Below, one piece after another: positions 25,208-44,840 of a DNA stretch of 64,000 bases (position 1 is its first letter; the number at the start of each line of letters is the position of its first letter). The notes below the pieces were generated by a model. It ran no database searches and was not told the origin of the DNA. It worked only from the letters and a program-made list of their open reading frames with translations. The position numbers were made by a program, and so were the translations under genes. Source of the DNA: Candidatus Latescibacterota bacterium (lineage in GTDB: Bacteria > Latescibacterota > UBA2968 > UBA8231); NCBI GenBank assembly GCA_965215195.1, contig CBDCDC010000002.1, forward strand, positions 1,536,001 to 1,600,000, given 5' to 3'.

Positions 25208-27199
25208 ATGCGCACTTTCTTTTTTCTCGCCCTAACTGCGCCTCTGTTGGTCCCAAGCTCTGGCTGGAGTCTAACCATCTATCGCATCGGTGGATCCGCT
25301 AAGGCCCCACCCCCGGAAGCAGAGCTAGCAGGAGTGGAATTCGCGCCGCTGACTTGGGCGGCGGCCGCCCAGGGGTTCGACGGAAAGATGCAAGGGCTGG
25401 CACTGGGGGAAGTGAGAATCGCGCCCGTACTGGTTTCCCCGAATGACAACCTCATCCTCACCGCCTCGGCTAGAGGAGGTGGCCCGGCCGGCTTTGCCAT
25501 CAAACGCGGGCAGAACCTGTACGGAGTGCTCGTGGCGGATCAATTGGTCGACAAAATTGCCGACGGAGACCCAACCACTGCTTTTCGCCTCGTCGATGAC
25601 CAAGGGCTGGCGAGGTTCTCTTCCGCTTCACCTGGAACCTTCCTGCTCGATTTGGGATGGCACTTTCCCATAAACAGGATTCGCTTCTATCCCACGCCCC
25701 AGTATACAGGACGCAATGTCGAGGAATTTGTCGTCCAAGTCGTAGAGGGCAGCTCCACCGGAGCCGTTGGATCGAGGACGGCCAACTGGCAGAAAATATT
25801 CAATGCTCTCTTCCCCGACGGCACCCGCAGCCAGAGCGTGGCGGGTGCGCCGCGAGACGAGTGGACAGTTGATGTCGTAGGCGCGGTGTCGCCCAATCGG
25901 CAGCAGCTCGTCGATTTTCTCTTTCCCACCCGCACGGTCGAGTACGTGGCGCTGACCGTTGCCGGGCAAGAAATGTGGGAAGTCGCCGAATTGGAAGTCT
26001 ATGGCGAGGGCTACGTGCCTCGGGCACTCTACCAATCCAAGGTGCTGGATTTGGGCGCGACCTCAACCTTGGGGACGCTCCGCTGGACCGGCTGCAAAGA
26101 CGGCGATGCCCACGTCGAAATCCGCACCCGCAGCGGCTCGGACCCGGACCCCAACCGCTACTGGCGCTTCACTGGCCGCGACGATGAGAAGACCTTCCTC
26201 GACGATGAAGGCCAGCCCCTAACCCACACCGCCCACCAAAGCCTGTCCTTTGGCCAAGGCCCCATCACCCCAGATCTGGACCACTGGAGCGACTGGTCGG
26301 GAGGCTACTCCTTCGCCGACAGCTTGGGAACTCCCATGACCTCGCCCGGGCCGCAGCGCTTCGTGCAACTACAAGTCGCTTTCGCCACCAAGGACGGGCA
26401 GGCCGGGGAGCTCGAGCTAGTGGAGTTGCTCATCTCCCGGCCGCCGGTGAGCGGTCCAGTGGTCGCCGAGGTCTGGCCGGTGGCAGTGGAGCCGGCCGCG
26501 GTGACGAGCTTTGTCTATGCCTTGCGGCCGGAACTGGGGCGGGCGACCAGCGGCTTCGATCAGCTCGTGCTGGAGACCTCGGGTCGGTTTGTCGGGGTGG
26601 ATTCGGTGCGGATCAATCAGGAGCGGCAGGCTCTTGTGCTGGCGGAGCCGCTCCAGGACCAGCGGCTGGTGGTGGCCCTGCCGCGGCTGGGGCCGGCCGA
26701 CAACCAGAAAGTGGTGGAGCTGTTCTTTCAAGCCCAGAGCTTCCACTTTGGCACTTGGTTCCACGGGGCGGTGTTCGACTCGGAGCGGCCCCTAGCGGTG
26801 GGGCAGCGGGTGGAGGCGGGCGATGCGCTTTTTCAGCTAGAGGGCAATCAAGTGTGGGTGGGCATCCAGCTAGACCGTGGGCTGCTGCAGCAAGTGGGGG
26901 TGGCAACGCCGCTACTCACGCCCAATGGGGACGGGGTCAACGACGCAGTGGCCATCGAATACACCGTGCTCAAGTTGGCCCGAGCTGGGGCGGTGGAGGT
27001 GACCGTTTTCGATATAGCGGGGCACCGGGTGCGACAGCTCTACGAGGGCCGCGATCGCAGCGGCCGGTACGGTCGGTGGTGGGACGGCCGAGGCGCGGAC
27101 GGTCGGGTGGTGGGGCCGGGTTTGTATGTATATCGAGTGCGCGTTGCCGCCGATCAGGGCTGGGAACAGCGCAGCGGCCTCATTCCCGTCGCGTATTAG
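25208..27199 (+). CDS. Secreted protein with discoidin-like region and TPNGDGxND/FlgD-Ig C-terminal domain (paralog 1)
   Basis: Signal peptide; LTIYRIGG, DGDPTT, LDLG..FPINRIRFYP, ELEVYGEGYVP, IRTRSG.DPDP.RYWR, TPNGDGVND, WDGR...PGLYVYRV. Confidence 0.85.
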   Translation: MRTFFFLALTAPLLVPSSGWSLTIYRIGGSAKAPPPEAELAGVEFAPLTWAAAAQGFDGKMQGLALGEVRIAPVLVSPNDNLILTASARGGGPAGFAIKRGQNLYGVLVADQLVDKIADGDPTTAFRLVDDQGLARFSSASPGTFLLDLGWHFPINRIRFYPTPQYTGRNVEEFVVQVVEGSSTGAVGSRTANWQKIFNALFPDGTRSQSVAGAPRDEWTVDVVGAVSPNRQQLVDFLFPTRTVEYVALTVAGQEMWEVAELEVYGEGYVPRALYQSKVLDLGATSTLGTLRWTGCKDGDAHVEIRTRSGSDPDPNRYWRFTGRDDEKTFLDDEGQPLTHTAHQSLSFGQGPITPDLDHWSDWSGGYSFADSLGTPMTSPGPQRFVQLQVAFATKDGQAGELELVELLISRPPVSGPVVAEVWPVAVEPAAVTSFVYALRPELGRATSGFDQLVLETSGRFVGVDSVRINQERQALVLAEPLQDQRLVVALPRLGPADNQKVVELFFQAQSFHFGTWFHGAVFDSERPLAVGQRVEAGDALFQLEGNQVWVGIQLDRGLLQQVGVATPLLTPNGDGVNDAVAIEYTVLKLARAGAVEVTVFDIAGHRVRQLYEGRDRSGRYGRWWDGRGADGRVVGPGLYVYRVRVAADQGWEQRSGLIPVAY

Positions 27200-27244
27200 C
27201 CGCTTGAGAAAACTGGCCCGGCCAACCCACTACCTATTATTCTA

Positions 27245-27273
27245 TTGATTTGCTACTTAAATTTCTTTATAAC
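27245..27273 (+). promoter_or_regulatory. Putative sigma70 promoter
   Basis: TTGATT-17 nt-TATAAC in an AT-rich leader. Confidence 0.45.
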
Positions 27274-27445
27274 AACACATAGTTCGCCCGTCGTTTAGAA
27301 TCTATTATTCCCACGGAAAGCGTGAAGTCACAAAAGAAAGGAGGGAATGAGCAAAGAAGTTGCGAATTTAGCTCAAACTCCATGGATGAAAAGAGGTGGG
27401 GTGGTTGTTTATGTCTCCTATCCATCATTGAGAAAGGAAAAAACA

Positions 27446-28333
27446 ATGGCACGTCGCATCATGGTCGCTGCTCTAGCGTTCACTCTGATCGCAGGAGGTA
27501 GCGCATCCGCACATTCCCCCGAAGGCGAAATTTTTAGCGCCTTCCAGTGGCCCCCAGGTCTCGAGCCCGTACTAGACGGAGTTGGCAGTGAGTACGGTAT
27601 CATTCCCGAGCCCTACTGGCAGACCACGGAACAATTCCCTGACACCCAAGGCGGCCGGGATATCGATCCGTCGAATTTCGACGCCAAGGCCACGATAACC
27701 TACAGTCTCGGCACCAACTTGATCTACGCGTACAGCGAGGTGTTCGACGACATCAGCATACCGCCCGACACTTGGCAGTTCATGATTGATGCCGACCACA
27801 GCGGGGGCGATTGCTATCCCGACACCGACGACAATGCGCGCTGGCACGCCTCGGCCTGCCAGCAGTACGAGGTGTACAACCACATTCCCGGGGAGGAGGG
27901 AGACGACCCCGTCCACTTCTTCTGGGGGACCGCTACTTGGCTGCCCGAGGAGGGCTGGTACAACATAACATGCACCTTTGACGGCGAGAAAGACGGTCCG
28001 GGCACGGTCTATCGGGAAGTGCAGTTTATGCCCCTCAACGACCTCAACTCCCCGGCTGGAGCAGCAGAGTCCGTCACCCACACCCTGGCCGAGGGCGAGA
28101 TCATAGGGCTCGGGTACAACTGGATGGACTACGACGAAGTGGGCCGCGAGGTTCAGGGGGGCGGCTGGCAGGCCTTCTACAACCTGAGCCAGCACGACCG
28201 GATGTACCGCAGTGGCGACGGTGCCTGCGACTTTTTCCTAGCCCCCGTGGATGAGACGGTCGATTTCAGCGCGATTCCCTCCGCGGTCGAGGCCACGACC
28301 TGGGGCCGGATAAAGACCGGATTCGTCCACTAG
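27446..28333 (+). CDS. Secreted acidic protein (DOMON/CBM9-like) with C-terminal TWGxIK motif
   Basis: AAGGA RBS, signal peptide, PVLDG, EVFDD, MIDADHSGG; ends SAVEATTWGRIKTGFVH. Confidence 0.75.
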   Translation: MARRIMVAALAFTLIAGGSASAHSPEGEIFSAFQWPPGLEPVLDGVGSEYGIIPEPYWQTTEQFPDTQGGRDIDPSNFDAKATITYSLGTNLIYAYSEVFDDISIPPDTWQFMIDADHSGGDCYPDTDDNARWHASACQQYEVYNHIPGEEGDDPVHFFWGTATWLPEEGWYNITCTFDGEKDGPGTVYREVQFMPLNDLNSPAGAAESVTHTLAEGEIIGLGYNWMDYDEVGREVQGGGWQAFYNLSQHDRMYRSGDGACDFFLAPVDETVDFSAIPSAVEATTWGRIKTGFVH

Positions 28334-28371
28334 CCATCCCTCACGCCCGAGGAGATAGCCTGCTATCTTCC

Positions 28372-28406
28372 GCCGCCTGGCACATGGTTCCAGTGTGCCA
28401 GGCGGC
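28372..28406. terminator. Strong intergenic hairpin (terminator or mRNA stabiliser)
   Basis: 13-bp stem GCCGCCTGGCACA/TGTGCCAGGCGGC; no U-tract. Confidence 0.45.
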
Positions 28407-28432
28407 ATCCTAGAAGCCGAAGAGTTTCGCGG

Positions 28433-30376
28433 ATGCGGCTCTCAATCCTCCTATCGACACTGATCCCAACCCTCGCTTGGGGACTCACCATATATCGCAT
28501 CGGCGGCACTCCAGATTACGCCCACCCGCTGGCGGACAGTACAGGAGTCGAGATCGTCGAGCTGACTTGGGAGGAGTTCGCCCAAGACCCCAAGCTGGAG
28601 GCACGGGGAGTGCGCACCAGTGAGGCGGGGAGTCTCGTGCCTGTATTCGTCAGTCCAGACGAGAATCTGTCCTTGGGCGCTATCGAGCGGGGCGAGGGCA
28701 AAAAATTCTATCCCGAACAGCGATTTGGGTCGTCCGATGGCGCTGGTCCCCGGGGCCACAAGTACGGCACCATTGCCAAAAACGATTTCACCGACTGGAC
28801 CGTGGACGGCGATCCAACCACCTACATGTGGCCGTCTGATCTGCTCACCGACCGACTGAACCCCAAGCTCGTCCTGTTCTTGGGCGCTACTTTTCCAGTG
28901 AATCGGGTCGTGGTCTATCCCCGTCGGGATCACCCCGAGCGCTACGTCGAGGACTATACCCTGTACGCGTGGCGCGAGGGCCAAGTCATGGGGCTGCACC
29001 GCAATTCGGGCGACGGACAAATAGTGGCGCGGGGCCGCGAAAATCGGGATCCAGTCATTGACATGCGGTTTCCCACCGCGGTCGTCGATCGGCTCATGTT
29101 CAATATCGACAACTTCGACGAGCCGTACATGGCGAACCGAATGTGGGAAATAGCCGAGTTCGAAATATACGGCGAGGGGTACGTGCCCAAAGGGTTGTAC
29201 ACTTCCAAGGCCCTTGAACTGGACGCCGCGTCCAGTCTGGGCGAAATCCGCTTTTGCGGCTTCAAGGACCGCGACGCCAAATTGCGGATTCGCACCCGCA
29301 GCGGCAGCGACGAAGACCCCGAGCGCTACTGGCGTCTCACCGGTCGCGGCGACGAAAGAAGTTTTCTCAAGGACAACGGTCAGCCCCTGACGCGCTCGGA
29401 TTACAACAACCTGCAGGGCGGCAAGGGCGGGATTACCACGGACTTAGACAACTGGAGCTTCTGGTCGGGGCCCTACGACTTGGCCGACAGTCTGGGGACC
29501 CCAATCACCTCCCCGAGTCCGCGGCAGTTTTTCCAGCTCCAGCTCGAGTTCTTGCCCGAGGGTTTGGACGGAGCCGGCGTGGATTTTATCGAGTTTCACA
29601 TCACGCAACCGCCGGTGGCCGGGCGCGTGATCGGAGAAATTTGGCCCACCGAAGTGGCCCCGGGCCAAGAGACTCCCTTCGTCTATGCCATGCTGCCGAC
29701 CTTTTTCGGGGGCGAGGGCGGGTTTGACCAGATCGTGCTGGAGACGACCGGGCAGTTTACCGGCGTGGATTCAGTTCGCATCAACGAGGAGCGGCTCCAA
29801 GATCGAGAATGGGAATTACTCGCACCGCTCCAAGACCAGCGGCTCGTGCTGTCCCTGCCGCGGATAGACCGCACCAAGAGCGGCAGACTGGTGGAGGTCT
29901 TCTTTCAGGGACGGGCATTCCGCTTTGGCACCGTATTCTCCGGGCAGGTTTTCGACGGCCAACGGCCTCTCGAAGTAGGGCAGTTCGTGGAGGACGGAGA
30001 TGCGACCTTCCGACTCGACAGCAACCAACGCTCCGTGGGCATCGCCCTGAACGGCCATATCGTCAGCAAGGTGGCGGCGAATCCGCGGGTGGTGACGCCC
30101 AACGACGACGGGGTCAACGACGAGGTGCGCATCGAGTACACCTTGCTGGAACTAGCCGGCGTCGGACAGGTGAAAGTGAGTATATTCGATCTGGCCGGCC
30201 ACCAAGTGCGCCAAGTGTACGCGGGAGAGGACAGCAGCGGCCAACACGCGCAACTGTGGGACGGTCTGGGCGCAGGCGAGCAGGTAGTGGCGCCGGGGGT
30301 CTATCTGTATCGGGTGCAAGTGGATACGGATGCCGGACGGGAAGAGCGCAATGGTCTGGTTGCGGTAGTTTTTTAG
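28433..30376 (+). CDS. Secreted FlgD-Ig-tail protein (paralog 2)
   Basis: Signal peptide; LTIYRIGG, DGDPTT, WEIAEFEIYGEGYVP, IRTRSGSDEDPERYWR, SPSPRQFFQ, TPNDDGVND, PGVYLYRV. Confidence 0.85.
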   Translation: MRLSILLSTLIPTLAWGLTIYRIGGTPDYAHPLADSTGVEIVELTWEEFAQDPKLEARGVRTSEAGSLVPVFVSPDENLSLGAIERGEGKKFYPEQRFGSSDGAGPRGHKYGTIAKNDFTDWTVDGDPTTYMWPSDLLTDRLNPKLVLFLGATFPVNRVVVYPRRDHPERYVEDYTLYAWREGQVMGLHRNSGDGQIVARGRENRDPVIDMRFPTAVVDRLMFNIDNFDEPYMANRMWEIAEFEIYGEGYVPKGLYTSKALELDAASSLGEIRFCGFKDRDAKLRIRTRSGSDEDPERYWRLTGRGDERSFLKDNGQPLTRSDYNNLQGGKGGITTDLDNWSFWSGPYDLADSLGTPITSPSPRQFFQLQLEFLPEGLDGAGVDFIEFHITQPPVAGRVIGEIWPTEVAPGQETPFVYAMLPTFFGGEGGFDQIVLETTGQFTGVDSVRINEERLQDREWELLAPLQDQRLVLSLPRIDRTKSGRLVEVFFQGRAFRFGTVFSGQVFDGQRPLEVGQFVEDGDATFRLDSNQRSVGIALNGHIVSKVAANPRVVTPNDDGVNDEVRIEYTLLELAGVGQVKVSIFDLAGHQVRQVYAGEDSSGQHAQLWDGLGAGEQVVAPGVYLYRVQVDTDAGREERNGLVAVVF

Positions 30377-30393
30377 GGGCCTCTACCGCTGGT

Positions 30394-30525
30394 CTTCGTA
30401 CACGACCCCTAAAGTAGGCGACACTTACTTTGAGTACGCCTTTTCTGCGGTTTCCGCTGGGTCCAGGATCGAGGGCGTCTCGCCCTCGATCCTTGGCAGG
30501 CTGAGGGCTGGTGTCGGGTAGTAAG
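30394..30525. mobile_element. MITE with IS4-family (IS10 group)-like ends
   Basis: Ends CTTCGTACACGACCCC and GGTGTCGGGTAGTAAG; flanks ACCGCTGGT/ACCTCTGGT (9-bp TSD, one mismatch); internal hairpin GGATCGAGGGCG-TCT-CGCCCTCGATCC. Confidence 0.65.
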
Positions 30526-30637
30526 ACCTCTGGTACACTTTTGCTTTGTTGCCCAGCTCTGCTACCGGCTATCCACTCCCTCTGCTGTCTGACCGGCCAC
30601 GTAACGCTATGCAGATTTCTTCTGAGGGAGGGTACAA

Positions 30638-31501
30638 ATGGACAATTTTCATCTCAGATGGTGGGGCTGCGGTGCGTTCGACGTCCTCCTCGACGACGTC
30701 AACATCGCCTTCGATCCCTATCTATTCGGCGAAAATCTCGCCAAGGCCGAAGCCGTTTACGACTATATCTTCATAAGTCACGAGCACTTCGACCACTGCC
30801 ATCCCCAAACCCTGCGCAAGCTCTGCCAAGGCGATCGCTTTAAGAAGCTCTTCGTTCCCATTGGCTGCTTGACCCCCAACGAGCCCATTGACGAGCAGTA
30901 CGGCGATGCGGCCTTCGCCCGGGATCTGCCCATCACCAAGCACATCCCGGCGGACCTAGTACAAGTGGCCTATCCCCATCCCAAGTACATGGCCGACGAC
31001 AAGCGCAGCTTTCCCGGTCCCTTTGAATTCGACTTGGGGCCGATCCACGTGGAGGTGATCGAAAGCGGAGAAAGCGCCCGACCCGACCTCCCGACCTGCG
31101 GTTATTTAGTCGCGCACGCAGAAAAGGATCTCTCCTTCTACCACACCGGCGATTTGGGCGCTGTATTCCCGGCGCTAAAAAAACTAAAGGGACGGGTGGA
31201 CTACCTCATCCACATGAAGACGCCCCTCGGCGAGCTGGTCGATTACGTCGAACCTCAATTCGTCGTTCCCACGCACTACCGCACCGACCGCGAGACCGAG
31301 CCCATTCCCGCCGGCCACTGGCCGCCCAATCTGACGGATGTCAACGCCTTTCTCGAAGACTTGCGAGAGCAAGTCGAAGGCCGGGCCCAGCTCCTTCCCT
31401 TCACCGCCCCCATTCTATACGAAGTAGAAATGCCGCAAAAAAAGGTGAAGTGGGAGTGGGAATGGTTCAATTCTTGGACCGTTCCCCTGTGGAGGGACTG
31501 A
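30638..31501 (+). CDS. Metallo-beta-lactamase fold hydrolase (UlaG-like)
   Basis: FDPY, ISHEHFDHCH (HxHxDH), FYHTGD, VPTHY. Confidence 0.85.
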   Translation: MDNFHLRWWGCGAFDVLLDDVNIAFDPYLFGENLAKAEAVYDYIFISHEHFDHCHPQTLRKLCQGDRFKKLFVPIGCLTPNEPIDEQYGDAAFARDLPITKHIPADLVQVAYPHPKYMADDKRSFPGPFEFDLGPIHVEVIESGESARPDLPTCGYLVAHAEKDLSFYHTGDLGAVFPALKKLKGRVDYLIHMKTPLGELVDYVEPQFVVPTHYRTDRETEPIPAGHWPPNLTDVNAFLEDLREQVEGRAQLLPFTAPILYEVEMPQKKVKWEWEWFNSWTVPLWRD

Positions 31502-33607
31502 ATGAAAATTTGCTGCTTTTTGGCGGTCGCGCTTTCGTGGTCCGCTGCCCTCGCACAGACCATCACCGTTGGCCAAGGTCCGCGGCAGTGGCAGGACGGA
31601 GGCGGAGGGATCAACCCGCAGTTCCCAGTATCGACCACCGAACTCGCCACCGGCAACACCCCGGGCGGCGTCATTGATTTCGATTCCGAACCTGGGTGGA
31701 TCTTCCTGCAGCAGATTGATCCCGGCAGGAATCTGGCCCTCGGTGCGGAGGACAGAGGTGGGGGCATGAGCTCGCCCCTGCCCTCGATCTCCGATCTAGC
31801 GCTAGAGTCCATGATAGACGGCAAGTCGGAAACCGCTTTTCGCCGCAAGGCTACGACGGCCGGAGCGTTAGTCATCGCCCGCGGCATCATTATGGATTTG
31901 GACCTGGGGGCGCGCTTTGGCGTCAACCGGATCCGGTTCTTTCCGCGCAACACCGTGCGCGAGGCCCCGGACTTCAAGTTTGAAAACGACTTCATGCGGG
32001 GCTACTCCTTGGCCCTAAACGACGGCAGCGAGGAGACCTCGGTAGAGGGCCGACCGCAGTACCTCAATCTCATAAGGGTGGAGGACAATATCGAAGCGGT
32101 CGTCGATCTAAAAATCCCGCTCCAGTACGTGCGCTTTATCCGGCTCAAGTCCGAGTCGAATATCGGTTTTGAGGTCGACGAAATCGAGACCTACGGCTCT
32201 GGTTTCGTGCCCGAAGCCCAGTACCTGTCCGACATCTTCGACTTGCAGGATCTGGCCATCTGGGGCAACCTGCGCTGGGCCGAGCGCCGCGAAGGCGTAC
32301 CCGGGCTTTCGGATATCCGCGTTTTCACGCGCTCGGGCCGCGACGAAACCCCCTACGTCTTCAACCGGCTGAACGCCAATCAGCTAGGCGTGCCTTGGAA
32401 GGCGGATGCCCAAGTCGATGAAATCCTCCTAGACGCCCTGTCCGTTGACGAGGCTTTTGACCTGTTCAATTCCCAGCCCCAAGCAACTAGGCAAAACCTC
32501 ATTCTCTCCCAAGCCGACTACGAAGCCCTCGCAGACCAGCAAAAAGCGCCCTTGAGAGACGATGTGGTCAACTGGAGCACTTGGTCCCCCCCCTATCCGG
32601 CAGAGGGACGGAGTGCGGTGGGGACCCCCATCATCTCGCCGGGACCGCGGCGCTACTTCCAGTTCAGAATCGACTTTGCCAGCCGCGATCTGAGTTCGGG
32701 CAGCGGCGTTGATTCCCTGTCTTTCGATTTTGCCAGCCCCGTGCCGGCCGAGCGCATCGTCGGCGAAATTTTCCCCCGGGATGTGCCGGCCGGCGAAGTG
32801 GTGGAATTCACCTATGGAATCTGGGCCGGGCTGCGGCCGCAGGACACCAGCTTCAATCGCTTTGAGATCGCCACGCCGAGCGTCCTCGAAGAGATCGGCC
32901 GCATAGAACTGCGCGATGCACAGGACCATCTCATCCGCGGAGAGGATCTCGCGGTCCGACTCAGCGAGATCCAGCCCCCCTTTATCAGGGGCGACTTCAG
33001 CATCGAGAGCGCGGCCGACGGTCGCGTCGTCGTCGGTTTCCCGCCATTGACCAATGGCGATCTTCTCAAGATCACCTTCAAGACCTCGGTGCTGAGGTTC
33101 GGGCAGACCTTTGCCGGCCGCGCCTTCCTCGCGGACCCGGCGCGCGAGGAAGGGGGCCAACTGCCCCAGCAAGTCGTGCCGGGCAACGCCGCCCAGCTCG
33201 CGCCAGATGACGTGGATCCGCGCCCGGTGGGCAGCGAAGATCTGACCTTGGTGGATAATAGCCTCTCGGTGCGCACGGCCATCGAGGGTTCGCTGCTCGG
33301 CCAGATCCGGGTAGTGCCCCCGACCTTCACCCCCAACCGGGACGGAGTCAATGATGCCGCGGTTATCCACTACGATGTGCTGCGGCTGGGCGTGGCCGCT
33401 CCGCTGCGGGTAGAGATCTGCGATCTGAGCGGCCGCTCAATCGCCGCCTTTGCCAACGACCGGGCGAGCGGCCGCTTCTCGATTGGGTGGGACGGGAGCG
33501 ATTCGCACGGCAACGCAGTGCCGCCCGGCCTCTACTTGTTCCGCGTTTTTCTCGACACCAATGCAGGCTCTGACGCAAAGACCGGGGTCGTTGGGGTGGT
33601 GTACTGA
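31502..33607 (+). CDS. Secreted FlgD-Ig-tail protein (paralog 3)
   Basis: Signal peptide; LDLGARFGVNRIRFFP, EIETYGSGFVP, TRSGRD, WSTWS, ISPGPRRYFQ, FTPNRDGVND, PPGLYLFRV. Confidence 0.85.
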   Translation: MKICCFLAVALSWSAALAQTITVGQGPRQWQDGGGGINPQFPVSTTELATGNTPGGVIDFDSEPGWIFLQQIDPGRNLALGAEDRGGGMSSPLPSISDLALESMIDGKSETAFRRKATTAGALVIARGIIMDLDLGARFGVNRIRFFPRNTVREAPDFKFENDFMRGYSLALNDGSEETSVEGRPQYLNLIRVEDNIEAVVDLKIPLQYVRFIRLKSESNIGFEVDEIETYGSGFVPEAQYLSDIFDLQDLAIWGNLRWAERREGVPGLSDIRVFTRSGRDETPYVFNRLNANQLGVPWKADAQVDEILLDALSVDEAFDLFNSQPQATRQNLILSQADYEALADQQKAPLRDDVVNWSTWSPPYPAEGRSAVGTPIISPGPRRYFQFRIDFASRDLSSGSGVDSLSFDFASPVPAERIVGEIFPRDVPAGEVVEFTYGIWAGLRPQDTSFNRFEIATPSVLEEIGRIELRDAQDHLIRGEDLAVRLSEIQPPFIRGDFSIESAADGRVVVGFPPLTNGDLLKITFKTSVLRFGQTFAGRAFLADPAREEGGQLPQQVVPGNAAQLAPDDVDPRPVGSEDLTLVDNSLSVRTAIEGSLLGQIRVVPPTFTPNRDGVNDAAVIHYDVLRLGVAAPLRVEICDLSGRSIAAFANDRASGRFSIGWDGSDSHGNAVPPGLYLFRVFLDTNAGSDAKTGVVGVVY

Positions 33608-33688
33608 ATTTCGCGGCTTTTGCCAAGCGGCTGGAGCGCAACCTAGAAGTTTTCGCCGACGCCAAGGCGATCTGCGGAGGGATTTTTC

Positions 33689-36424: not shown

Positions 36425-39138
36425 TGATGCGCGAGACCCTCTCCGCCCTTGCGCTCCTAACACTGGCTGGGACCAGCGTCAGTGCCCAAGACTACGGCAA
36501 TCGCTTGGGGCAGGGGCGCGGCGAAGACGTGCAATTCCCGACCACGGGCCCCAGCATCCTCTCGGCTGCGCTCGATCCCCGGGTGCAAAAGTGGTACTTG
36601 CCCCAGGAACTCTACGGCGAATACCGGCTGAATCAGTGGTCGTACACCAACTACGCGAGGGATTTCTACCGGCGCTACCTGCAGCCAGACTTGGAAGGGG
36701 ACTACTTCTACGATCTGTTTGGCCGCCGCGTCATGCACGGGTGGCTGATCTACGAGGCGAGAAAAGAACAACCCCGAGCCTCGGAGGGCAACAGCCTGCT
36801 CAAATCCCCGCTCTACGGCGGCAATTTTCAGAACTTGACCATCTCTTCCGACGCCAAGGGACAGTACCGCTACGCCCTGACCGTCGGCAACGAGATTCGC
36901 ACCACTCTCACGCCCATGACTTTCAACAAGGCCGTCTTCAACGGCATCCAGTTCGATTATCTGGCGGACCGCTACGCCGGCACCGTGCTCCTTTCGCGCG
37001 TCAGCGCACCGCTGGTGGCCACCTCGGACTTTGGCGTGGGACTCACCAACGCCACAGAATTGAAAGCCGGACGGGCAACGGTCCAAGTCGGCGACCGCGT
37101 CACCCTCGGCGGCACCTACGTCAACACCCACAACAGCCGCGCCACCCTAGAGCGCTTTGCCGGCAATATGTTCAAGGGCTTTCTCACCACCGATCAGGCC
37201 GCCAACGCCGTCTCCTTCGTGGAAATCCGCCTCGGCGACGATTCGCCCGCAGATGGCGAGGGCGGGGCCATTCTCTTTGCCGAAAACGCCATCCTCGAGG
37301 ACGTCACTGGCCACACTTGGGAAAGCACCCAAGTCGGTTATACCCCGGTGCGGACGGGCGGCCAGTTGCGCGATGGGTTTCCCGTGGCCGACGGCAACGA
37401 GCGCATGATCCTGCGCTACAACCTCGAAACCCTCGCTGCGGCGAGAATTGTGCAGGTTGATGGCGAGCCTAGCCTATCGCCCACCACAGTTGATTCCCTC
37501 GCCGAGGTGCGCTTCGAATTGGTGCTGGCCAACGACTACCGGATCGAGATTACCTCGGACCGCCAGACCAACATCGAGGGCCAACCAGTCTTTCTGCCGG
37601 TGCAGAGCGCTCCGCGCAACGTCAAGGACACCTCCAATCGGCGCACCGTGCGCTTCGACTACGGCCTGCCCACGGCCAATCAGATCGCTGGTTTCACCGC
37701 AGCGGTCCACGAATTGTGGGGCTTCAACCTGTACGCGGAAGTGAACGTCAACCACCGCTTTGTCCAGTATCCCAGCCCGCTGCTGGAGACCCATCGGATC
37801 GCCGCCAAGAGGGCGGACGCATGGATGGTCAATCTGTCGCAGATTCGCTCCCCCTATTTTTTTCACCTCGAAGCTTTCAGCATGGATCCAAATTACACCA
37901 CGAGCATCTTTATGACCGAGACCAACGGGCGGACCGACTTTGCCGACGAAGAGACCTTTTTCTACGACTACGTCGACGACAACGACGACCAAGACCGCTT
38001 TCCCGACCAGAAGCGCCGCTGGCAGTCAATCGCGCTGAGCGGCAGCCAGACCGGCGAAGGCGCGGCCGACCCGTCCGTATTCCCCGGTTGGGACGAAAAC
38101 GGCGACTTCATCTCGGACTTCAACCAGAACGACAACCCAGTGCGCCGCAACTCGATTGCGGACTACGAGGAGCCCTTCCTGCGCTTTAGCGCCGATCGGC
38201 CGGAGTTTCTCTTTGGCATCGATCTCAACAACAACGGCTGGATCGACCGCTTTGAAGACGACGCCGACCCGGATTATCCCTACGACCGGGATCACCGGGG
38301 CTACAATGTGTACGGCGGCGTCGACGTGCTTCCCCAGATGCGCCTGACGGCCGGGCAGACGCGGCAGTGGCGGCTGTCCTCGGGCCGGCGCAGCGAGGTA
38401 GCGTACGGGCTTTTCACCTTTGAGCGCGATTGGGCCGCCTTGGGCCGGCTGCGCGTCTTCGAGCACGTGAAGAAAGTGCGCGACAACATAGCGGACGACC
38501 GCATTGCCGCGCCGAAATTCTTCCGCGATTCCCAAGCTACGGTCGAAGACCCGCTGCCGGCTCAGAACACTTGGATTAATACATTCTGGCTGGGCTTTGA
38601 CTACGCGCGCCTAGCTCCATTGTACCTGTCCAACAAGTTCAAGTACGAATTCCTCCACCAGCGCGACAAACAGCAGGTACTCGACGAGCGCGGCGCACGG
38701 CGCAATGCGCGCTTTGTCGGCTTGGTCAACAAGGCGGATTGTGGCTTTGCGGTCGGCAAGTTCCACGTCCGACCGCGCCTCAAAAACGAATTCTTCTGGG
38801 ACGTCCCCTACCTAAAGGAGGCGGAGAAACGCCACTGGTGGAAGCAGATGCTATCCCTCAGCGTCAAATTCCCCATCCTCAAACGCTCGTGGATCGAGAC
38901 GGGCCTGGAGCAGGTATTCACCACCGACTTGGGGGTGGCAGCCGGGCTGCACACGGGCGATGCGCGCCAGACGGTTCTGGCGTTGCAGCTAACCAATTAC
39001 GGGACCTACGTGGGCTATCGCTCGATCATGCAGTTTGGCCTGCGCTACGACCGGGACCGATTTGAGCGCCGCGGTGCGAAGCCCGAGACCAAGACGGGCA
39101 GCCTCGTCTTTCTCTCTTTCTACACCGGGCTAAAATAG
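36424..39138 (+). CDS. Large exported protein, paralog of 33689-36424 (copy B)
   Basis: TAATG overlap; same motif order (WY.PQELY.EYR, YTNYARD, LEGDY.YDL, DDSPADGEGGA, YGLPTANQI, DYEEPFLR..DRPEFLFGIDLNNNGWIDRFE); ends FLSFYTGLK. Confidence 0.75.
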   Translation: MMRETLSALALLTLAGTSVSAQDYGNRLGQGRGEDVQFPTTGPSILSAALDPRVQKWYLPQELYGEYRLNQWSYTNYARDFYRRYLQPDLEGDYFYDLFGRRVMHGWLIYEARKEQPRASEGNSLLKSPLYGGNFQNLTISSDAKGQYRYALTVGNEIRTTLTPMTFNKAVFNGIQFDYLADRYAGTVLLSRVSAPLVATSDFGVGLTNATELKAGRATVQVGDRVTLGGTYVNTHNSRATLERFAGNMFKGFLTTDQAANAVSFVEIRLGDDSPADGEGGAILFAENAILEDVTGHTWESTQVGYTPVRTGGQLRDGFPVADGNERMILRYNLETLAAARIVQVDGEPSLSPTTVDSLAEVRFELVLANDYRIEITSDRQTNIEGQPVFLPVQSAPRNVKDTSNRRTVRFDYGLPTANQIAGFTAAVHELWGFNLYAEVNVNHRFVQYPSPLLETHRIAAKRADAWMVNLSQIRSPYFFHLEAFSMDPNYTTSIFMTETNGRTDFADEETFFYDYVDDNDDQDRFPDQKRRWQSIALSGSQTGEGAADPSVFPGWDENGDFISDFNQNDNPVRRNSIADYEEPFLRFSADRPEFLFGIDLNNNGWIDRFEDDADPDYPYDRDHRGYNVYGGVDVLPQMRLTAGQTRQWRLSSGRRSEVAYGLFTFERDWAALGRLRVFEHVKKVRDNIADDRIAAPKFFRDSQATVEDPLPAQNTWINTFWLGFDYARLAPLYLSNKFKYEFLHQRDKQQVLDERGARRNARFVGLVNKADCGFAVGKFHVRPRLKNEFFWDVPYLKEAEKRHWWKQMLSLSVKFPILKRSWIETGLEQVFTTDLGVAAGLHTGDARQTVLALQLTNYGTYVGYRSIMQFGLRYDRDRFERRGAKPETKTGSLVFLSFYTGLK

Positions 39139-39150: not shown

Positions 39151-41667
39151 ATGCTACATACGTATTGCGCGATCTATCTGCTAGGCGCGGTGCTCGGGTG
39201 TGGTGCGGTCGCGGCTCAGGATGGCTATGCGATCCGCGGCGACCGGATCATCACCGAGGGCGAGGACGCGTGGCGGCAATGGCTCTTCCCGGTCGGCACG
39301 ATCGACTTCGACGCCCAAGGCGTCCGGCCCCACTTCGTGGCCCGGGACATCAATGCCAGCCTCGACGCCCAGCACTTTCCGCTCGAAGCTGCGGACGACG
39401 AAAAGGGGGGCATCCACGCGGCCGGGTCCAACGCGGCCGCCGCTGCCAACATCCTCGATGGCGATCCTTTGACCTATTGGGAACCGAATCTCGACGATCC
39501 GCCCGATCGGTGGTGGGTGGTGATCGACCTCGGACGCATGGTGCCGGCCACGCGCCTTGTCCTGCGCTTTGCCGCCGCAGGGCAGGGCGATCCATTCTAC
39601 CACTTCCGGGTGCTGGCAGCCAACGGCGACGCCCGTCTCGGTGCCAGCGACAATCTCGACTACCACCTCGTTGGCCGCACTAGGCGGCCCAATCTCGACC
39701 AGCGGGAATTCGCCTTTGCGCTGAGTCCCTTTTCCCCAGCCGACCCATCCTTTACCGGGGATGCCGTGCGCTTCATCCAAGTGGTGATGACCGACAGCCG
39801 CTTGGGCAAGGCCGAGGAAGTGGCCGACCTAGAGGCGTACCAAGCCCTGTCCGCGTCCGCGCAAGGCGATGTGGACTATTTCGGCCGCAGCCGCTCGGGG
39901 CGCGAGTGGGGTCTCGACGAAGCGACCTATCAGTTGCTCGATCCGTCCGAACGAGGCTCAATCCGCTATTACCGCCGCGAACAGCCCCGCCTCGCCGAGC
40001 TCGAGGTCCGCACGGTGGGAGAAAATATCGCCTTAGGCCTGCTGCCGCGCGGCGGGGCCATAGAGGCGGATGGCAGCAATCTCGGCAAGAGCGTCGACGG
40101 AAACTACGCGACCTACTACAACTTTCAGGGTGGATACACGGCCGAGGCTTCAAACCGAGAGCGCCGCACGGTTTTCGACCTAGGCTCGCTCTACTGGATC
40201 GACCGCATCCAGATCCTCACCGCCCATCCGCCCAACCCCAGTGGCACGCTGCGCTCGTACCGCGCCAAGGTGTCGGACGGCTCTCTAGCCCCAGACGGAA
40301 CCTTGGCGTGGACCCAAGTGGCCCACCGGCCGGAGAAAAGCCAGCATCGGTGGCAGGAGCTGCACTTCGAGTTGATCAAGGGCCGCTTCCTCATCTTCGA
40401 TTACCTAGTCCACCTCGGTGGCTCGCAGTCCTCCATAGGGGAGTTTATGGTCTTCGGCGAGGGGTATCAGCCCGAAGTGGTGCTGGAATCGCCCCTGATC
40501 GACTTGGGCAACTCCAGAAACCTGACTACCCTCCACTGGCAGGGGCACACCCCGCCCGGCACCCGCATTGAGCTAGCCACCCGCACCGGCGACCAGATCA
40601 AAACCATCACCCACTACTTCAGAAAAGACGGCACCGAGATCACCGAGCAAAAATACAACAAAACGATCGCCGCCCTGCGGGGTCCCACGACCGAGGAGGT
40701 CGTCGTCGAAGAAGAGACCTGGAGTAGCTGGAGCCAGCCGCACGCGGCCTCGGGCGAAGAGGTCACTTCGCCTTCCCCGCGCCGCTTTATGAAGGCGCAG
40801 GTCAAGCTGTTCAGCGACTATCCAGATCGCTTTGCCCAGCTAGCGCAGCTCGAAGTGCGCTTTGCCCAGCCGTGGGTGGAGCGGGCGTGGGGCGAGGTGT
40901 ATCCGGTACACGTAGAGCGTTTAGGCGCAGAGACCCCGCTGACCTTTTTCGTGCGAGCGGAACAACGTTCCAGCGATCCGGGCATTGACGAGGTGCTACT
41001 CATCAATTCAAACGAGGTGCCGTTGAGCCTGCAGAGCATCCGTCTCGGCCCTGCGGCCGCAGTGGCCGGGGGACGCGGGCGGCCCGTCGAGCTGTCGGGG
41101 GTGGAGGTGCGCCCGACCGGGGACGATTCGCTGTGGGTGCGGCTGCCCGAGGTCGTCCCGCGCAACGAGGTAGTGGCCCTAGAGGTTTCTACCACGCTCT
41201 TCGGGCACGGGGCCTCGTTTGCCGGACGAGTGGGCAACCGCGACAATTCGGGTGCTTGGCAGCGGGTGGAAGCCGGCGATGCAGTGGAGGAGGTAGAGAG
41301 CCAGGTTTTGCGGGTGCTGGCACCAGAGGGTCAGGTGGGTCTGTCCAGCTTGCAACTCAGCGCACAGGTGGTGACCCCCAATGGGGACGGGGTCAATGAG
41401 GCCGCGACCTTGCACTTTGAGGTGTTGCGGATGGACGGGGCCCAGTCCGTGCTGGTGTCGGTGTACGATCTGTCGGGTCGCCGGGTGTGGGAATTAGAGG
41501 AGGAGCGCGCCCGGGCGAGCGGTCTGTACAAAGTAGCATGGCCGGGCGTGGACCACGCGGGCGCACCCGTGCGGCCGGGGGTGTACTTGTTGCGCGTAGA
41601 GGTAGAAGCGGATGCGGATGTGGATGTAGAGGCCGCTTTGGTGCGTGCAGTGTACGTGGCTTATTGA
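39151..41667 (+). CDS. Secreted FlgD-Ig-tail protein with two discoidin/F5-8-like regions (paralog 4)
   Basis: Signal peptide; ANILDGDPLTYWEP, WWVVIDLGR, FDLGSLYWIDRI, EFMVFGEGYQP, TRTG, WSSWS, SPSPRRF, VTPNGDGVNE, PGVYLLRV. Confidence 0.85.
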   Translation: MLHTYCAIYLLGAVLGCGAVAAQDGYAIRGDRIITEGEDAWRQWLFPVGTIDFDAQGVRPHFVARDINASLDAQHFPLEAADDEKGGIHAAGSNAAAAANILDGDPLTYWEPNLDDPPDRWWVVIDLGRMVPATRLVLRFAAAGQGDPFYHFRVLAANGDARLGASDNLDYHLVGRTRRPNLDQREFAFALSPFSPADPSFTGDAVRFIQVVMTDSRLGKAEEVADLEAYQALSASAQGDVDYFGRSRSGREWGLDEATYQLLDPSERGSIRYYRREQPRLAELEVRTVGENIALGLLPRGGAIEADGSNLGKSVDGNYATYYNFQGGYTAEASNRERRTVFDLGSLYWIDRIQILTAHPPNPSGTLRSYRAKVSDGSLAPDGTLAWTQVAHRPEKSQHRWQELHFELIKGRFLIFDYLVHLGGSQSSIGEFMVFGEGYQPEVVLESPLIDLGNSRNLTTLHWQGHTPPGTRIELATRTGDQIKTITHYFRKDGTEITEQKYNKTIAALRGPTTEEVVVEEETWSSWSQPHAASGEEVTSPSPRRFMKAQVKLFSDYPDRFAQLAQLEVRFAQPWVERAWGEVYPVHVERLGAETPLTFFVRAEQRSSDPGIDEVLLINSNEVPLSLQSIRLGPAAAVAGGRGRPVELSGVEVRPTGDDSLWVRLPEVVPRNEVVALEVSTTLFGHGASFAGRVGNRDNSGAWQRVEAGDAVEEVESQVLRVLAPEGQVGLSSLQLSAQVVTPNGDGVNEAATLHFEVLRMDGAQSVLVSVYDLSGRRVWELEEERARASGLYKVAWPGVDHAGAPVRPGVYLLRVEVEADADVDVEAALVRAVYVAY

Positions 41668-41673
41668 TTTTCT

Positions 41674-41985
41674 CAGCGCCGGGTTGACCGTGATCGATGG
41701 CGGCTCCTGCGCTGTCCTACGCCGTGTAGGCCCCCATCGGTGGCGGCTTCGGGCCGTCCGCGTGGCCGCGTCAAACGACAGGCCCGCGGGGAGCCCCGAC
41801 ACGCGATAGGTTATCTCTCCCTCACCGCCCGTAGCTTCCGGCAGTACCAAATCGGTAATCGCCGTACCATCGGTGTGACCTCCCCGGCAAAACCGAAGGC
41901 CATCTCGTCGTCGCTGTCGGAATCGGCCTCCGGTGGCGTCGCGCCGTCGTCGTCCGTAATCGTACCCGTCGCCTCGGCCAGCAGT
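41674..41985 (-). pseudogene. Degraded adhesin fragment (Calx-beta end plus putative Ig/He_PIG domain)
   Basis: EATGTITDDD...FGFAGEV, then LVLPEATGGEGEITYRVSGLPAGLSFDAATRT...ITVNPAL, across several frameshifts. Confidence 0.6.
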
Positions 41986-42035
41986 GCGTGGGAATGGTCG
42001 GCGCGGGCGGTCTCAGCACCGGGTGTGCGGGCATT

Positions 42036-42317
42036 TCAGCCGGGCAAGCGCGACAAGATCAGCGTGCCCAGGGCTAACAGGGTGGTCAACTGGATGCCGA
42101 TAAGCCAGCGAAAATCTCGGCGTTGCTCCTGCCGTAATGCGGCCAACTCTTGGCGCATCTCCTGCCGAAGTTCGCGGCCTTGCTCGGTAATGGCTTGCTC
42201 AATGCGGTCGAGGCGGGCGTTGGTCTGGCGGCCTTGCTCGGTCAACTGCTCGGCAATGCCTTCCAGCCGGCCAATGCGGAGGTCGTGATCTTGGGCTTGG
42301 GTAATGGGTTCGCTCAT
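42036..42317 (-). CDS. Small coiled-coil protein with C-terminal TM helix (DUF1640/XhlA-like)
   Basis: AAGGAGG RBS; MSEPITQAQDHDLRIGRLEGIAEQL...RWLIGIQLTTLLALGTLIL; paralog of 47224-47454. Confidence 0.75.
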   Translation of the reverse strand: MSEPITQAQDHDLRIGRLEGIAEQLTEQGRQTNARLDRIEQAITEQGRELRQEMRQELAALRQEQRRDFRWLIGIQLTTLLALGTLILSRLPG

Positions 42318-42336
42318 GGCGATACCTCCTTAAAGC

Positions 42337-42390
42337 GCACCAACCCGGCGCGGCCGGCGCGCAAGAGAGGCGGCCGCGCCGGGTTGGTGC
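42337..42390. repeat. 20-bp perfect inverted repeat directly upstream of an RBS
   Basis: GCACCAACCCGGCGCGGCCG (42337-42356) / CGGCCGCGCCGGGTTGGTGC (42371-42390). Confidence 0.75.
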
Positions 42391-42459
42391 TGTCTGTATG
42401 TCGTCGGGGCCACGGGCGAAGAAAGATAGGCTTCGGTGCAGGGAGTGCAAGCGCAGCAC

Positions 42460-42948
42460 GGCTTCCGCGTGTTGATGCAATACAAGGCGATTCGGCTGAT
42501 TGAGATAGACGGCCAGCGCATCCTCGACGCGGGGCCTGTGCGCCGTTGATACAGCGGCCGGCTGGTGTGGCTGCCGAGGCGTGTGTGAACCGGGCGCAGC
42601 AGGTGCCGATGGCCGAGCCCCTCAAGGCCAATTATCTGGCCGACCTTGCAGTTTTGAGCGGGTTGGTATATAACTTAGAAACGATTATGGCCATCATCGC
42701 GGAGGAGACCATGTGCGAATCGTCGGTAGTGTACTATTTCACGGAGAAGGCCCTTGAGCAAAAAAAGAAAAAGTACGCTCGAAGCTATTCTCGAAGTCTT
42801 GGAGATTCGCTTTGGTCTGGGTGCGGCGCACCCTCTAGCGGACCGCATAGCCGCCATTGACGATGTGCAGCGGCTCAAGCAGTTGCATCGGGCAGCCTCG
42901 AGGCCTTCAGGTGCCTGTTGGACGCCGACGAGTAGGGCCACCGCGTAA
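42460..42948 (+). pseudogene. Rpn-family (recombination-promoting nuclease/putative transposase) C-terminal remnant
   Basis: QYKAIRLIEIDGQRIL...LAVLSGLVY...MCESSVV...ILEVLEIRFG...IAAIDDVQRLKQLHRAA, spread over shifted frames. Confidence 0.6.
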
Positions 42949-42986
42949 CGTCAGTTATTGATTTTCTTATCGACGCGGGATTCTAG

Positions 42987-44840
42987 ATGCAGTGTGCAAA
43001 AGGACGCCTCTTGGTTCTCGCCCTAGCGGCCAACGCGCTGGTTCTGCACTCGGGTATGGGCTTGACCATATACCGAATCGGCGACCAAGCCCTATCTCCG
43101 CCGCCCCAAGGCGCGGACCTAGTGCAGTTGAGTTGGGAGGAGGCATCGCAGGGCGCGGACGGCGCGTGGGATGGGCTCGTCCTAGAAAACGGACAGCTTG
43201 CTCCCATACGAGTTCGGCCAGATGAAAACCTATCCCTTTCGGCCATTGCCCGAGGGGGTGGACCGCGCGGGCAAAAGTACCCCAACGTTGAGCCGCAGAC
43301 CGAGATCACCGACTGGACGGCCGACGGCGATCCCACAACCGCCTTTCGCGATACGGATGCGGCCCATCGGGGCATGGGCAACCAGCTAACCATGTACCTC
43401 GGCGGGCGCTTCCCCGTGAGCCGAGTCCGCTTTTATCCCTCGCCGCAATCGTCCGGGCTCATCATCGAAAAATTCAAGCTGACCGCTTCCGACCAAAAGG
43501 GACGTGCCGCGGTGATCGGGTTGGTGTCGAACAATACGCACCCGACCGTGGTTTTGACCTTCCCGAGCCGCATCGTCGATCGGCTCCAGCTAAACGTGCA
43601 TTCCTCTAGATCCAGAGTCGGGGACTGGTTTCCCTGGGAAATCGCCGAGTTCGAAGTGTACGGCGAGGGCTTCGTGCCAGAGGCGACCTTCCAGTCTCAA
43701 GTTTTCGACTTAGACGCACCTGCCACCGTAGGCCCCTTGCGCTGGTCCGGTTTCAGGGATCCCGACGCCCGAGTCAATATCCGCACCCGCAGCGGTCGCG
43801 ATCCAGATCCCAATCGCTATTGGCGCTACACCGGTCGCGGGGACGAGATCACCTTTCGCACACCGCAGGGTGCGCCCATGACCCAAGCGGACTACGAAAA
43901 ACTCCGCGGCGGTCAACCCCCCATAACCGCGGATCTCGACAACTGGAGCGCGTGGTCCGGCCCGTACGCCACCAGCGCCGCCATCGTCTCGCCGAGCCCG
44001 CGCCAGTTCCTGCAAGTGCAGGTCGGGTTCGTGCCCAAGGGATTCCACGGCGGCGGCGTGGATTTCGTAGAGTTCCGGGTAACTCAGCCCCCGCTCAGCG
44101 GCCCGATCGTGGGCGAGGTCTGGCCCGAACACGCGGTCCCGGGAGCCGTGACGCCGTTTGTGTATGCCTTGCTGCCCGAGTTGAGTCCAGAGACGAGCGG
44201 GTTTGATCGCCTAGTAGTGGAGACGACGGGACGCTTTGCCGCGGTCGATTCAGTGCGGATAAACGAGGAGCGGATAGCGGTGGAGGCAGCAGTTGAGGCC
44301 GAGCGGATGGCCCTGTCGCTGCCGCGGATGGGAGCGGCGGACAACCAGAAACTCGTGGAGGTTTTCTTTCAGGCGCAGGTGTTTCACTTCGGCACGTCGT
44401 TCGCCGGCCAGGTCTTCGACTCGCAGCGGCCTATGGAAGTGGCCCAGCAAGTAGTGCCTGGAAATGCCACTTTCCGGCTGGATGGCGACCAGCTCTCGGT
44501 GGGCGTTCAGCTCGCTGGTCCGCTCTTGCAGCAGGTGGCCGTACAACCGCCGGTGCTCACGCCCAATGGGGACGGCATCAACGACCGGACGAAAATTGCG
44601 TACACCTTGCTGAGATTGGCGGACGAAGGCGAAGTGGCGGTCGAAATTTTCGCCCTCTCGGGTCGCTTGGTGCGGAAGCTCTACAGCGGTCGAGAACGCA
44701 GCGGGCACTACCTGCGGCTGTGGGACGGACGCGGCGATGATGGCGCAGTGGTCGCGCCGGGATTGTATCTGGTCCAAGTGCGCTTGGACGCAGACCGCGG
44801 GATCACCAAGGACAGCGGTATCATTGCGGTGGCCTACTGA
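42987..44840 (+). CDS. Secreted FlgD-Ig-tail protein (paralog 5)
   Basis: Signal peptide; LTIYRIG, DGDPTT, WEIAEFEVYGEGFVP, IRTRSGRDPDPNRYWR, LTPNGDGIND, APGLYLVQV; ends IAVAY. Confidence 0.85.
   Translation: MQCAKGRLLVLALAANALVLHSGMGLTIYRIGDQALSPPPQGADLVQLSWEEASQGADGAWDGLVLENGQLAPIRVRPDENLSLSAIARGGGPRGQKYPNVEPQTEITDWTADGDPTTAFRDTDAAHRGMGNQLTMYLGGRFPVSRVRFYPSPQSSGLIIEKFKLTASDQKGRAAVIGLVSNNTHPTVVLTFPSRIVDRLQLNVHSSRSRVGDWFPWEIAEFEVYGEGFVPEATFQSQVFDLDAPATVGPLRWSGFRDPDARVNIRTRSGRDPDPNRYWRYTGRGDEITFRTPQGAPMTQADYEKLRGGQPPITADLDNWSAWSGPYATSAAIVSPSPRQFLQVQVGFVPKGFHGGGVDFVEFRVTQPPLSGPIVGEVWPEHAVPGAVTPFVYALLPELSPETSGFDRLVVETTGRFAAVDSVRINEERIAVEAAVEAERMALSLPRMGAADNQKLVEVFFQAQVFHFGTSFAGQVFDSQRPMEVAQQVVPGNATFRLDGDQLSVGVQLAGPLLQQVAVQPPVLTPNGDGINDRTKIAYTLLRLADEGEVAVEIFALSGRLVRKLYSGRERSGHYLRLWDGRGDDGAVVAPGLYLVQVRLDADRGITKDSGIIAVAY

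Follow-up and report, generated by a model that had tools for sequence, protein, structure and literature searches.

A repeated outer-membrane cassette with a giant predicted beta-barrel in Candidatus Latescibacterota

The window considered here is a stretch of 64,000 nucleotides from a Candidatus Latescibacterota bacterium (assembly GCA_965215195.1, contig CBDCDC010000002.1, positions 1,536,001 to 1,600,000, forward strand), and between its positions 25208 and 44840 lies a cassette of genes for three families of exported protein. These are the F proteins, with discoidin- or CBM32-like heads and FlgD-like tails, the T proteins, predicted to be giant outer-membrane beta-barrels, and the S proteins, which are secreted and CBM9-like. 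The cassette is a real, conserved, lineage-wide outer-membrane system, and the window locus is a typical copy of it with two extra subunit genes; its mechanism we infer. The reading that we favour, at a probability of roughly 0.45, is that the T barrel, a trio of F and S form an energised outer-membrane unit for the capture and uptake of glycans. Cassette and barrel appear to be undescribed, and their likely job (capture with uptake, or display) parallels known systems. No description of either was found in a full-text literature search, which had subscription journals largely, and supplements, outside its scope.

Gene order and repetition of the cassette

A preliminary description of the locus, made by a model from the sequence alone, had reported five co-oriented exported proteins, here named by their starts (25208, 28433, 31502, 39151 and 42987), flanking twin proteins of about 900 amino acids (aa). 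All of these are present on the plus strand, and the twins, T1 and T2, share 48% identity in an alignment of 916 columns. The eight motifs said to be shared by the five F proteins occur in order in every one of them if the patterns are slightly relaxed; with strict patterns there are two exceptions, E.E.YG.G[YF].P being absent from 39151 and SP.PR.[FY] from 25208. The five can be aligned end to end. The motif TPN[GDR]DG.N[DE] is found in 80 of the 131 F of the genome and in none of 1876 other open reading frames (ORFs) of at least 400 aa, so its presence in F is not due to chance. Two genes within the span had been overlooked, those for S and for a protein of metallo-beta-lactamase fold. The core order at this locus is S-F-F-T-T-F, with two local F duplicates. 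Judged by sequence, the core F set is 28433 (class Y2), 31502 (Y1) and 39151 (D), and 25208 and 42987 are extra Y2 copies. These two are mutual nearest paralogues, and their close orthologues are confined to the three nearest relatives; among the relative loci L001-L017, an orthologue of 25208 at 62% identity or above was found in L001-L003 only. The anatomy of 25208 comprises a signal peptide, a CBM32-like head, a stalk, an Ig-like region and a CHU_C/FlgD-Ig tail.

The host genome (G000; 6.13 Mb in two contigs, 95.2% complete, 8.5% contamination) holds 131 F, 53 T and 40 S, as counted by searches of six-frame ORFs (F at E<1e-15; S of at least 250 aa). They form 59 clusters, 38 with T and 35 with both F and T, together occupying 475 kb or 7.7% of the genome. 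Within 6 kb of an F lie 49 of the 53 T, against 39 of 406 other ORFs of at least 700 aa. At the T loci of relatives, F is present in 78 of 80 and S in 64 of 80, and the two loci without F are contigs of 7.5 and 4.3 kb. The preliminary description would have been abandoned had the F and T families been found apart in other genomes or matched a characterised enzyme family; the two are co-located, across this genome and in relatives, and membership of either in a characterised enzyme family was rejected, with no catalytic match.

The phylum was covered by 161 genomes with a completeness of 70% or more; T occurs in 101 of them and the F stalk in 104. The tallies per family are identical for the two except for three marginal F matches (E about 1e-11) in a T-free family, which is a pattern and not a statistic, as kin are not independent. 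The closest matches of T1 (75-95% identity) are mostly records titled Candidatus Latescibacterota, and cassette-bearing relatives include lake and groundwater genomes, by their record titles. A search for T beyond the phylum gave 1228 clusters at 50% identity, without taxonomy, and a divergent query gave 9 matches; records with Gemmatimonadota in their titles came up in other searches. In three metatranscriptomes, contigs of related strains (mostly 90-95% alike) cover parts of cassette genes, one spanning 28835-35269, and those bearing S are the deepest long pieces listed, although such contigs can neither rank genes nor prove transcription. About a third of the T matches in one relative, G093, are partial or split, some with stops, and are either decaying copies or assembly errors.

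Domains and subunit classes of F, and the S protein

The heads of F had been called discoidin-like, and this is borne out by their profile, which matches CBM32 and F5/8 structures (89 solved sequences at E<=1, best 7jnb at E 3.5e-14). A Pfam discoidin match is present in 21 of 78 heads, and among the window F only 39151 matches F5/8 type C. No catalytic domain was matched by the F profiles. The stalk, of about 290 aa, has no PDB sequence match, and its Atlas neighbours are only unnamed or weak. All five window F end in Pfam CHU_C and FlgD_ig (E 5e-9 to 3e-5), with some scores under the 27-bit cut-offs and CHU_C above its cut-off in two of the five; among 90 paralogues, CHU_C is found in 86 (E<=0.01) and FlgD_ig in 85. 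TIGR04131 scores 16-23 bits in four of the five, under a cut-off of 35, and does not match the fifth. TPNGDG had been taken as the hallmark of type B sorting domains in type IX secretion systems (T9SS), a claim that is not supported. The motif is not exclusive, and the tail profile also matches FlgD, PorU and a domain of a streptococcal C5a peptidase, in which PNGDG recurs. Going by these profiles, the F tail is T9SS-like and not proven type B. A flagellar role of the tail was rejected, as at least 150 such domains sit on diverse proteins in the host genome. A lipobox-like pattern occurs in only 4 of the 131 F.

A tree of 127 F, with four short ones excluded and six left without a class, divides them into a double-head class D (46 members, support 0.999), single-head classes Y1 (17), Y2 (24), Xa (11, with a weak support of 0.61) and Xb (18), and a basal class O (5). 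By this tree the subunit classes are old and distinct. Cassettes follow the order S-Xa-Xb-D-T or variants of S-Y2-D-Y1-T. Exactly one D is present in 24 of the 28 clusters with at least three F (permutation mean 11.7, with none of 2000 reaching 24), and only 16 of 112 F of multi-F clusters have their nearest paralogue within their own cluster; the cassettes have therefore mostly been duplicated as units with a fixed set of three subunits. D and at least two other F are held by 27 of the 38 T clusters, 23 of them with S too. Directly upstream of a T stand 12 of 17 Y1, against 1 of 24 Y2, and the order is the same in relatives. One D and two single-head F may form a heterotrimer. The five F had been proposed as a diversified adhesin or glycan-binding array; they have not varied freely but fall into three subunit classes of old origin, two of the genes being local duplicates. 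The associated claim, that heads diverge while stalk and tail are conserved, is only mildly true, with mean identities among the 127 F of 24% in the head, 31% in stalk-A, 27% in the Ig region and 36% in the tail.

The S profile, built on 33 paralogues, matches the CBM9 structure of a Thermotoga xylanase (1i82, E 5.8e-6), and Pfam CBM9_1 is found in 9 of the 33 at E<=0.1, the window's own S not being among them. The C-terminal tail of S, AVExxxWGxIK (window 28295-28333), is also carried by about 25 other ORFs, including unrelated secreted proteins, and has no family match in Pfam or NCBIfam scans; at a guess, it is a lineage-specific sorting signal.

The T barrel

The twin proteins had been described as barrel-like, and AlphaFold2 agrees in predicting an outer-membrane barrel for T1 (133 sequences, pLDDT 85.9, pTM 0.83). 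The model has 22 long strands from residue 127 to the C-terminus and up to four short strands before them, hence a count of 22-26. The N-terminal segment of about 125 aa is partly of low confidence, as are model residues 1-70, and T ends at its last strand, without C-terminal periplasmic domains. Short turns alternate with long loops, so that two features would face outward, a beta-sandwich inserted at about residues 241-409 of T1 and an acidic loop at about 487-610. The loop is conserved, with several invariant Asp/Asn, and probably binds calcium. Covariation across 455 T sequences carried too much noise to settle how the barrel closes.

T1 and T2 have no Pfam or NCBIfam family match, and the T profile had no match among PDB sequences at E<=10. 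In the Atlas, T1 finds 30 unnamed clusters, and the nearest named one, DUF6029 at 0.89, is a lead only. Fold searches with Foldseek and VIA gave generic barrels only (best E 2e-7 for MtrB, TM <=0.33; best Z 14.2 at rmsd 12.6). The usher FimD scores Z 14.1 (rmsd 8.9, 335 aligned), tied with unrelated barrels, and LptD Z 11.2 (rmsd 5.7, 361 aligned); usher Pfam models do not match T1 or T2. The suggestion that T is a barrel of the PorP/SprF type fails, since neither PF11751 nor TIGR03519 matches T1 or T2 and T is far larger (about 890 aa and at least 22 strands, against about 300 aa). Plug (PF07715) and TonB receptor (PF00593) have no match in T1, T2 or 46 T homologues, whereas the receptor at 21080 matches both. 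SlpA_C (PF21620) matches the same stretch in 9 of the 46 homologues (among them P0280, P0137 and P0140; E 1.3e-8 to 0.014), all under the 35-bit cut-off (best 34.2) and over about 75-125 of 656 positions, which map to model positions about 370-470; it has no match in the two window T. In fold, the SlpA structure 8ae1 has the highest Foldseek TM-score (0.33) and 7zgx the longest VIA alignment (423 residues, rmsd 6.2, Z 10.5), and a deep kinship of the two barrels is possible.

T is not always accompanied by F. Genome G093 has 65 T matches, pieces included, against 2 F-stalk matches among 15 scored candidates, and of 32 T of full length in 20 fetched regions, 25 lack an F within 6 kb, with the qualification that these regions were hand-picked from the best T matches of four genomes and that the stalk profile may miss very divergent F. 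Where both are present, similarity among T correlates by rank with that of the neighbouring F head at 0.50, Ig region at 0.46 and tail at 0.16 (31 pairs), values that are all inflated by shared descent. A secreted protein of 600-660 aa with a type A T9SS-like tail, not CBM9-like, also recurs near T (L131, L133, L137, L138, L148, L111:11299-13203), including where F is absent, and may replace F there.

Core operon, export machinery and neighbouring genes

The most divergent T loci carry genes for a giant TPR protein, ExbB, two ExbD, a DUF4159 membrane protein and a lipoprotein. The core order F-(PorV-like)-T-T-TPR-ExbB-ExbD-ExbD-DUF4159-lipoprotein is found whole or in part in G000, G093, G007, G010 and G014, so that T is linked to ExbB/ExbD genes at these core loci; the fetched stretch of G093 has the order without ExbB/ExbD, and in G007, G010 and G014 these two were judged by eye from printed sequence ends. 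F is followed there by a PorV/PorP-like barrel, by sub-threshold matches, and the lipoprotein has an AgmX/PglI TonB-like domain above cut-off in all three long forms scanned. The run TPR-ExbB-ExbD-DUF4159-lipoprotein was seen as an operon at L123, L124, L127, L142, L144 and L147 and resembles Agl-Glt motor cores. Ordinary TonB plug domains, 20 in number, are present in the host genome as well, and replacement of TonB receptors by T found no clear support, as plug counts overlap between T-rich (4-30) and T-free (8-39) families.

The T9SS genes expected in the host were found in part. SprA, PorU and seven PorV-family matches are above cut-off, with porU and porV adjacent (sites C1:252999-258908 and C2:1738404-1743261; L118, L126), and SprA is present in 156 of the 161 phylum genomes; 8 of 10 PorV-family genes lie more than 12 kb from cassettes. 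PorP/SprF, GldL, GldM and GldN were not found in the host genome, by searches that lacked a working positive control and did not include GldK, and GldM was above cut-off in 0 of 61 phylum genomes, again with no positive control. On this gene content, Latescibacterota may run a T9SS without the Gld motor of Bacteroidota. In a passage of one review, T9SS is said to possibly occur in other FCB phyla, and Latescibacterota is not named there (PMC11285876). Paillat et al. show five type B motifs to be needed but insufficient for carrier recognition (PMC12618676).

Around the cassettes, certain other families recur within 10 kb of F or T, namely parvulin peptidyl-prolyl isomerases (PPIases; 34 of 41), a 250-aa lipoprotein family (20 of 21), a mixed ASPIC/TPR set (76 of 109) and DUF6785 (25 of 46), over a background of 22% and with profiles seeded from neighbours, which favours nearby members. 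The window itself holds a PPIase, two ASPIC proteins and a DUF6785 protein. The parvulin PPIase is likely a dedicated chaperone of the cassettes.

Possible functions of the cassette

Under the favoured reading, Sec would take F across the inner membrane, and the single SprA translocon would take it across the outer one by way of the uncleaved type-B-like tail of F, with assistance from shared PorV/PorP-like barrels. A set of one double-head and two single-head F would then be placed at or near T, S would supply additional binding sites, and the PPIase would fold cassette proteins. A shared ExbB/ExbD motor with TonB-like proteins would open T, which would act as an energised receptor or transporter, and each cassette would have its own ligand, as in SusC/SusD loci. 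Glycan binding by the F heads and S is likely on their domain matches, and transport through T is possible on its gene linkage. Because T outnumbers F in G093 and also occurs solo, it is unlikely to be only an anchor or exporter of F; solo T genes are what one would expect if receptors worked singly with a shared motor, and together with the motor linkage and the lectin-type partners they favour a receptor or transporter over the alternatives below. Several points weigh on the other side. T matches neither Pfam Plug nor TonB receptor, and a plug is not established in the low-confidence residues 1-70. The window locus has no ExbB/ExbD, the motor linkage being confined to core loci, and the ordinary TonB plug domains of the genome show no trade-off with T. 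Glycoside hydrolases were not among the recurrent cassette neighbours in the neighbourhood scan, discoidin domains can also bind lipids or proteins, and the solo-T regions carry the selection and detection biases given above.

A more doubtful reading, close to that of the preliminary description, makes T a carrier and anchor barrel that takes the F trio from SprA and presents it as an adhesin or as a coat of the surface. T would then be a giant counterpart of PorP/SprF in function, and the ExbB/ExbD-TPR operon the missing T9SS energy chain. The tight linkage of F and T, their matching presence across the phylum and the position of Y1 directly upstream of T are all consistent with this, as are the missing PorP/SprF match, the distance of most PorV-family genes from cassettes and the Gld searches, whose value is limited by their want of a positive control. 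Type B cargo is reported to remain bound to its cognate barrel (PMC9143113, PMC12635249). T-rich, F-poor genomes and solo T genes argue against an anchor, however, and F at core loci already has a PorV/PorP-like neighbour of its own. The similarity of T also tracks the neighbouring F tail least. The dedicated export or anchor module proposed at the outset retains its tight F-T co-location, its predicted barrel and a T9SS translocon, but T is often without F in relatives, which speaks against a purely dedicated one.

It is improbable that T is a pore for the secretion or assembly of F and S, working like an usher or a two-partner system, and that these two polymerise into a fibre or lattice in which F supplies the tip or minor subunits. 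Its barrel size near that of ushers and LptD, the dedicated periplasmic chaperone beside most cassettes and the fixed subunit set would suit such a pore; the T9SS-like tail of F, the presence of SprA and the solo T genes would not. Ushers moreover have C-terminal periplasmic domains, which T lacks, and the fold matches are generic. It is likewise improbable that T serves as a passive porin or as a scaffold of the envelope, with a distant kinship to Deinococcus SlpA, decorated by F and S and without an energised step. The SlpA fold scores and the SlpA_C matches on one shared stretch point that way, but those matches are short, sub-threshold and absent from the window T, no S-layer homology domain was matched, and 53 diverged T copies with their ExbB/ExbD linkage would be left unexplained.

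Comparison with known systems

Bacteroidota polysaccharide utilisation loci with SusC/SusD comprise dozens of paralogous barrel loci per genome with surface glycan-binding partners, and the Ton system of these bacteria has its ExbB/ExbD and TonB-like genes at separate shared loci. The cassette is alike in its many paralogous barrel loci, its putative glycan-binding partners and its separate shared ExbB/ExbD loci. It differs in having no Plug, TonB-receptor or SusD family match and no hydrolases as regular neighbours, and its F partners are not lipoproteins but carry secretion tails instead. ExbB-type motor cores are also a feature of the myxobacterial Agl-Glt type of motor organisation, which the core operon resembles in having ExbB with a pair of ExbD, a giant TPR protein and a C-terminal domain of the AgmX/PglI kind. 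Here the GltG/GltJ models fall far under cut-off, however, the outer-membrane partner is an unrelated giant barrel, and the core operon lies outside the window. With Deinococcus SlpA, T shares a very large barrel and weak profile and fold similarity, but its matches are sub-threshold and local, it has many copies per genome, and no S-layer homology domain was matched.

T9SS type B systems with PorP/SprF, such as SprB-SprF and PG1035-PorP, have been described (PMC9143113, PMC12618676), and F resembles their cargo in its Sec signal and CHU_C-like tail. The likeness extends to the placing of the cargo gene, directly upstream of one for an outer-membrane barrel, and to the SprA, PorU and PorV of the host. 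The differences are the size of T with its absent PorP match, the three cargo classes per cassette, F tails under the TIGR04131 cut-off, the failure to find GldL, GldM and GldN, and T that occurs without cargo.

Features of the window

The features of the locus and its surroundings are summarised in Table 1. The metallo-beta-lactamase-fold gene, found in 14 of the 17 relative loci L001-L017, would encode a locus-specific passenger or tailoring enzyme. An intergenic repeat of about 130 bp at 30394-30525, possibly a miniature mobile element or structured RNA, lies in a stretch (30376-30640) with 96 blastn matches in the genome, at up to 94% identity. In the gap at 41668-42986 that separates 39151 from 42987 there are a short repeat near 41755, a degraded multi-copy stretch and a multi-copy minus-strand ORF of about 90 aa with a C-terminal hydrophobic segment. 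An ordinary TonB-dependent receptor is encoded at 21080-23920, 1.3 kb upstream of the first F and with a Gfo/Idh/MocA oxidoreductase in between. Two tandem leucine-rich-repeat ORFs, of a kind reported to be common in sponge symbionts, lie at 18469-20043, and divergent from the PPIase gene is an ORF of 580 aa (53950-55692) with no Pfam or NCBIfam match.

Table 1. Genes of the cassette and its recurrent neighbours, in window positions.
Feature	Positions	Strand	Details
F, single-head class Y2, extra local copy	25208..27199	+	663 aa; nearest paralogue 42987
S, secreted, CBM9-like domain and C-terminal AVExxxWGxIK tail	27446..28333	+	paralogue profile; ribosome-binding site ahead of ATG
F, single-head class Y2, core subunit	28433..30376	+	647 aa
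Metallo-beta-lactamase-fold hydrolase	30638..31501	+	Pfam Lactamase_B_3, E 1.4e-11
F, single-head class Y1, core subunit	31502..33607	+	701 aa; class usual directly upstream of T
T1, predicted 22-26-strand outer-membrane beta-barrel	33689..36424	+	911 aa; AlphaFold2
T2, T1 paralogue, start overlapping T1 stop	36424..39138	+	904 aa; 48% identity to T1
F, double-head class D, core subunit	39151..41667	+	838 aa; Pfam F5/8 type C, E 1.8e-9; two head motifs
F, single-head class Y2, extra local copy	42987..44840	+	617 aa; behind 1.3-kb gap with repeated DNA
DUF6785/DUF6784 membrane protein, recurrent cassette neighbour	44855..46951	-	Pfam, E 7.8e-131
ASPIC/UnbV-FG-GAP protein, recurrent neighbour (first of two)	47807..49711	+	Pfam
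ASPIC/UnbV-FG-GAP protein, recurrent neighbour (second of two)	50389..52215	-	Pfam
SurA/PrsA-like parvulin PPIase, most regular cassette neighbour	52222..53883	-	profile match

Implications for Latescibacterota

Class UBA2968 of Latescibacterota has been placed among sponge symbionts enriched in glycoside hydrolases, according to one study (PMC8163846). No description of glycan uptake by Latescibacterota was found in the searchable literature. It is conceivable, though doubtful, that this phylum has evolved a second class of proton-driven importers of the outer membrane, distinct from TonB receptors, with T as the pore. The lid of T would be a lectin heterotrimer rather than a SusD lipoprotein, delivery of the lid would fall to a Gld-less T9SS, perhaps powered by the same ExbB/ExbD-TPR-AgmX module, and a library of such units would take up to about 8% of the genome. 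The parts of the cassette are single genes, and can hence be expressed one by one for structure and binding tests. The cassette also raises a testable question, namely how a T9SS translocon operates in a phylum where Gld motor genes were not found. A barrel family that counts 53 copies in one genome, matches no known family and is associated with T9SS-type cargo and an ExbB/ExbD motor would amount to a new machine of the outer membrane.

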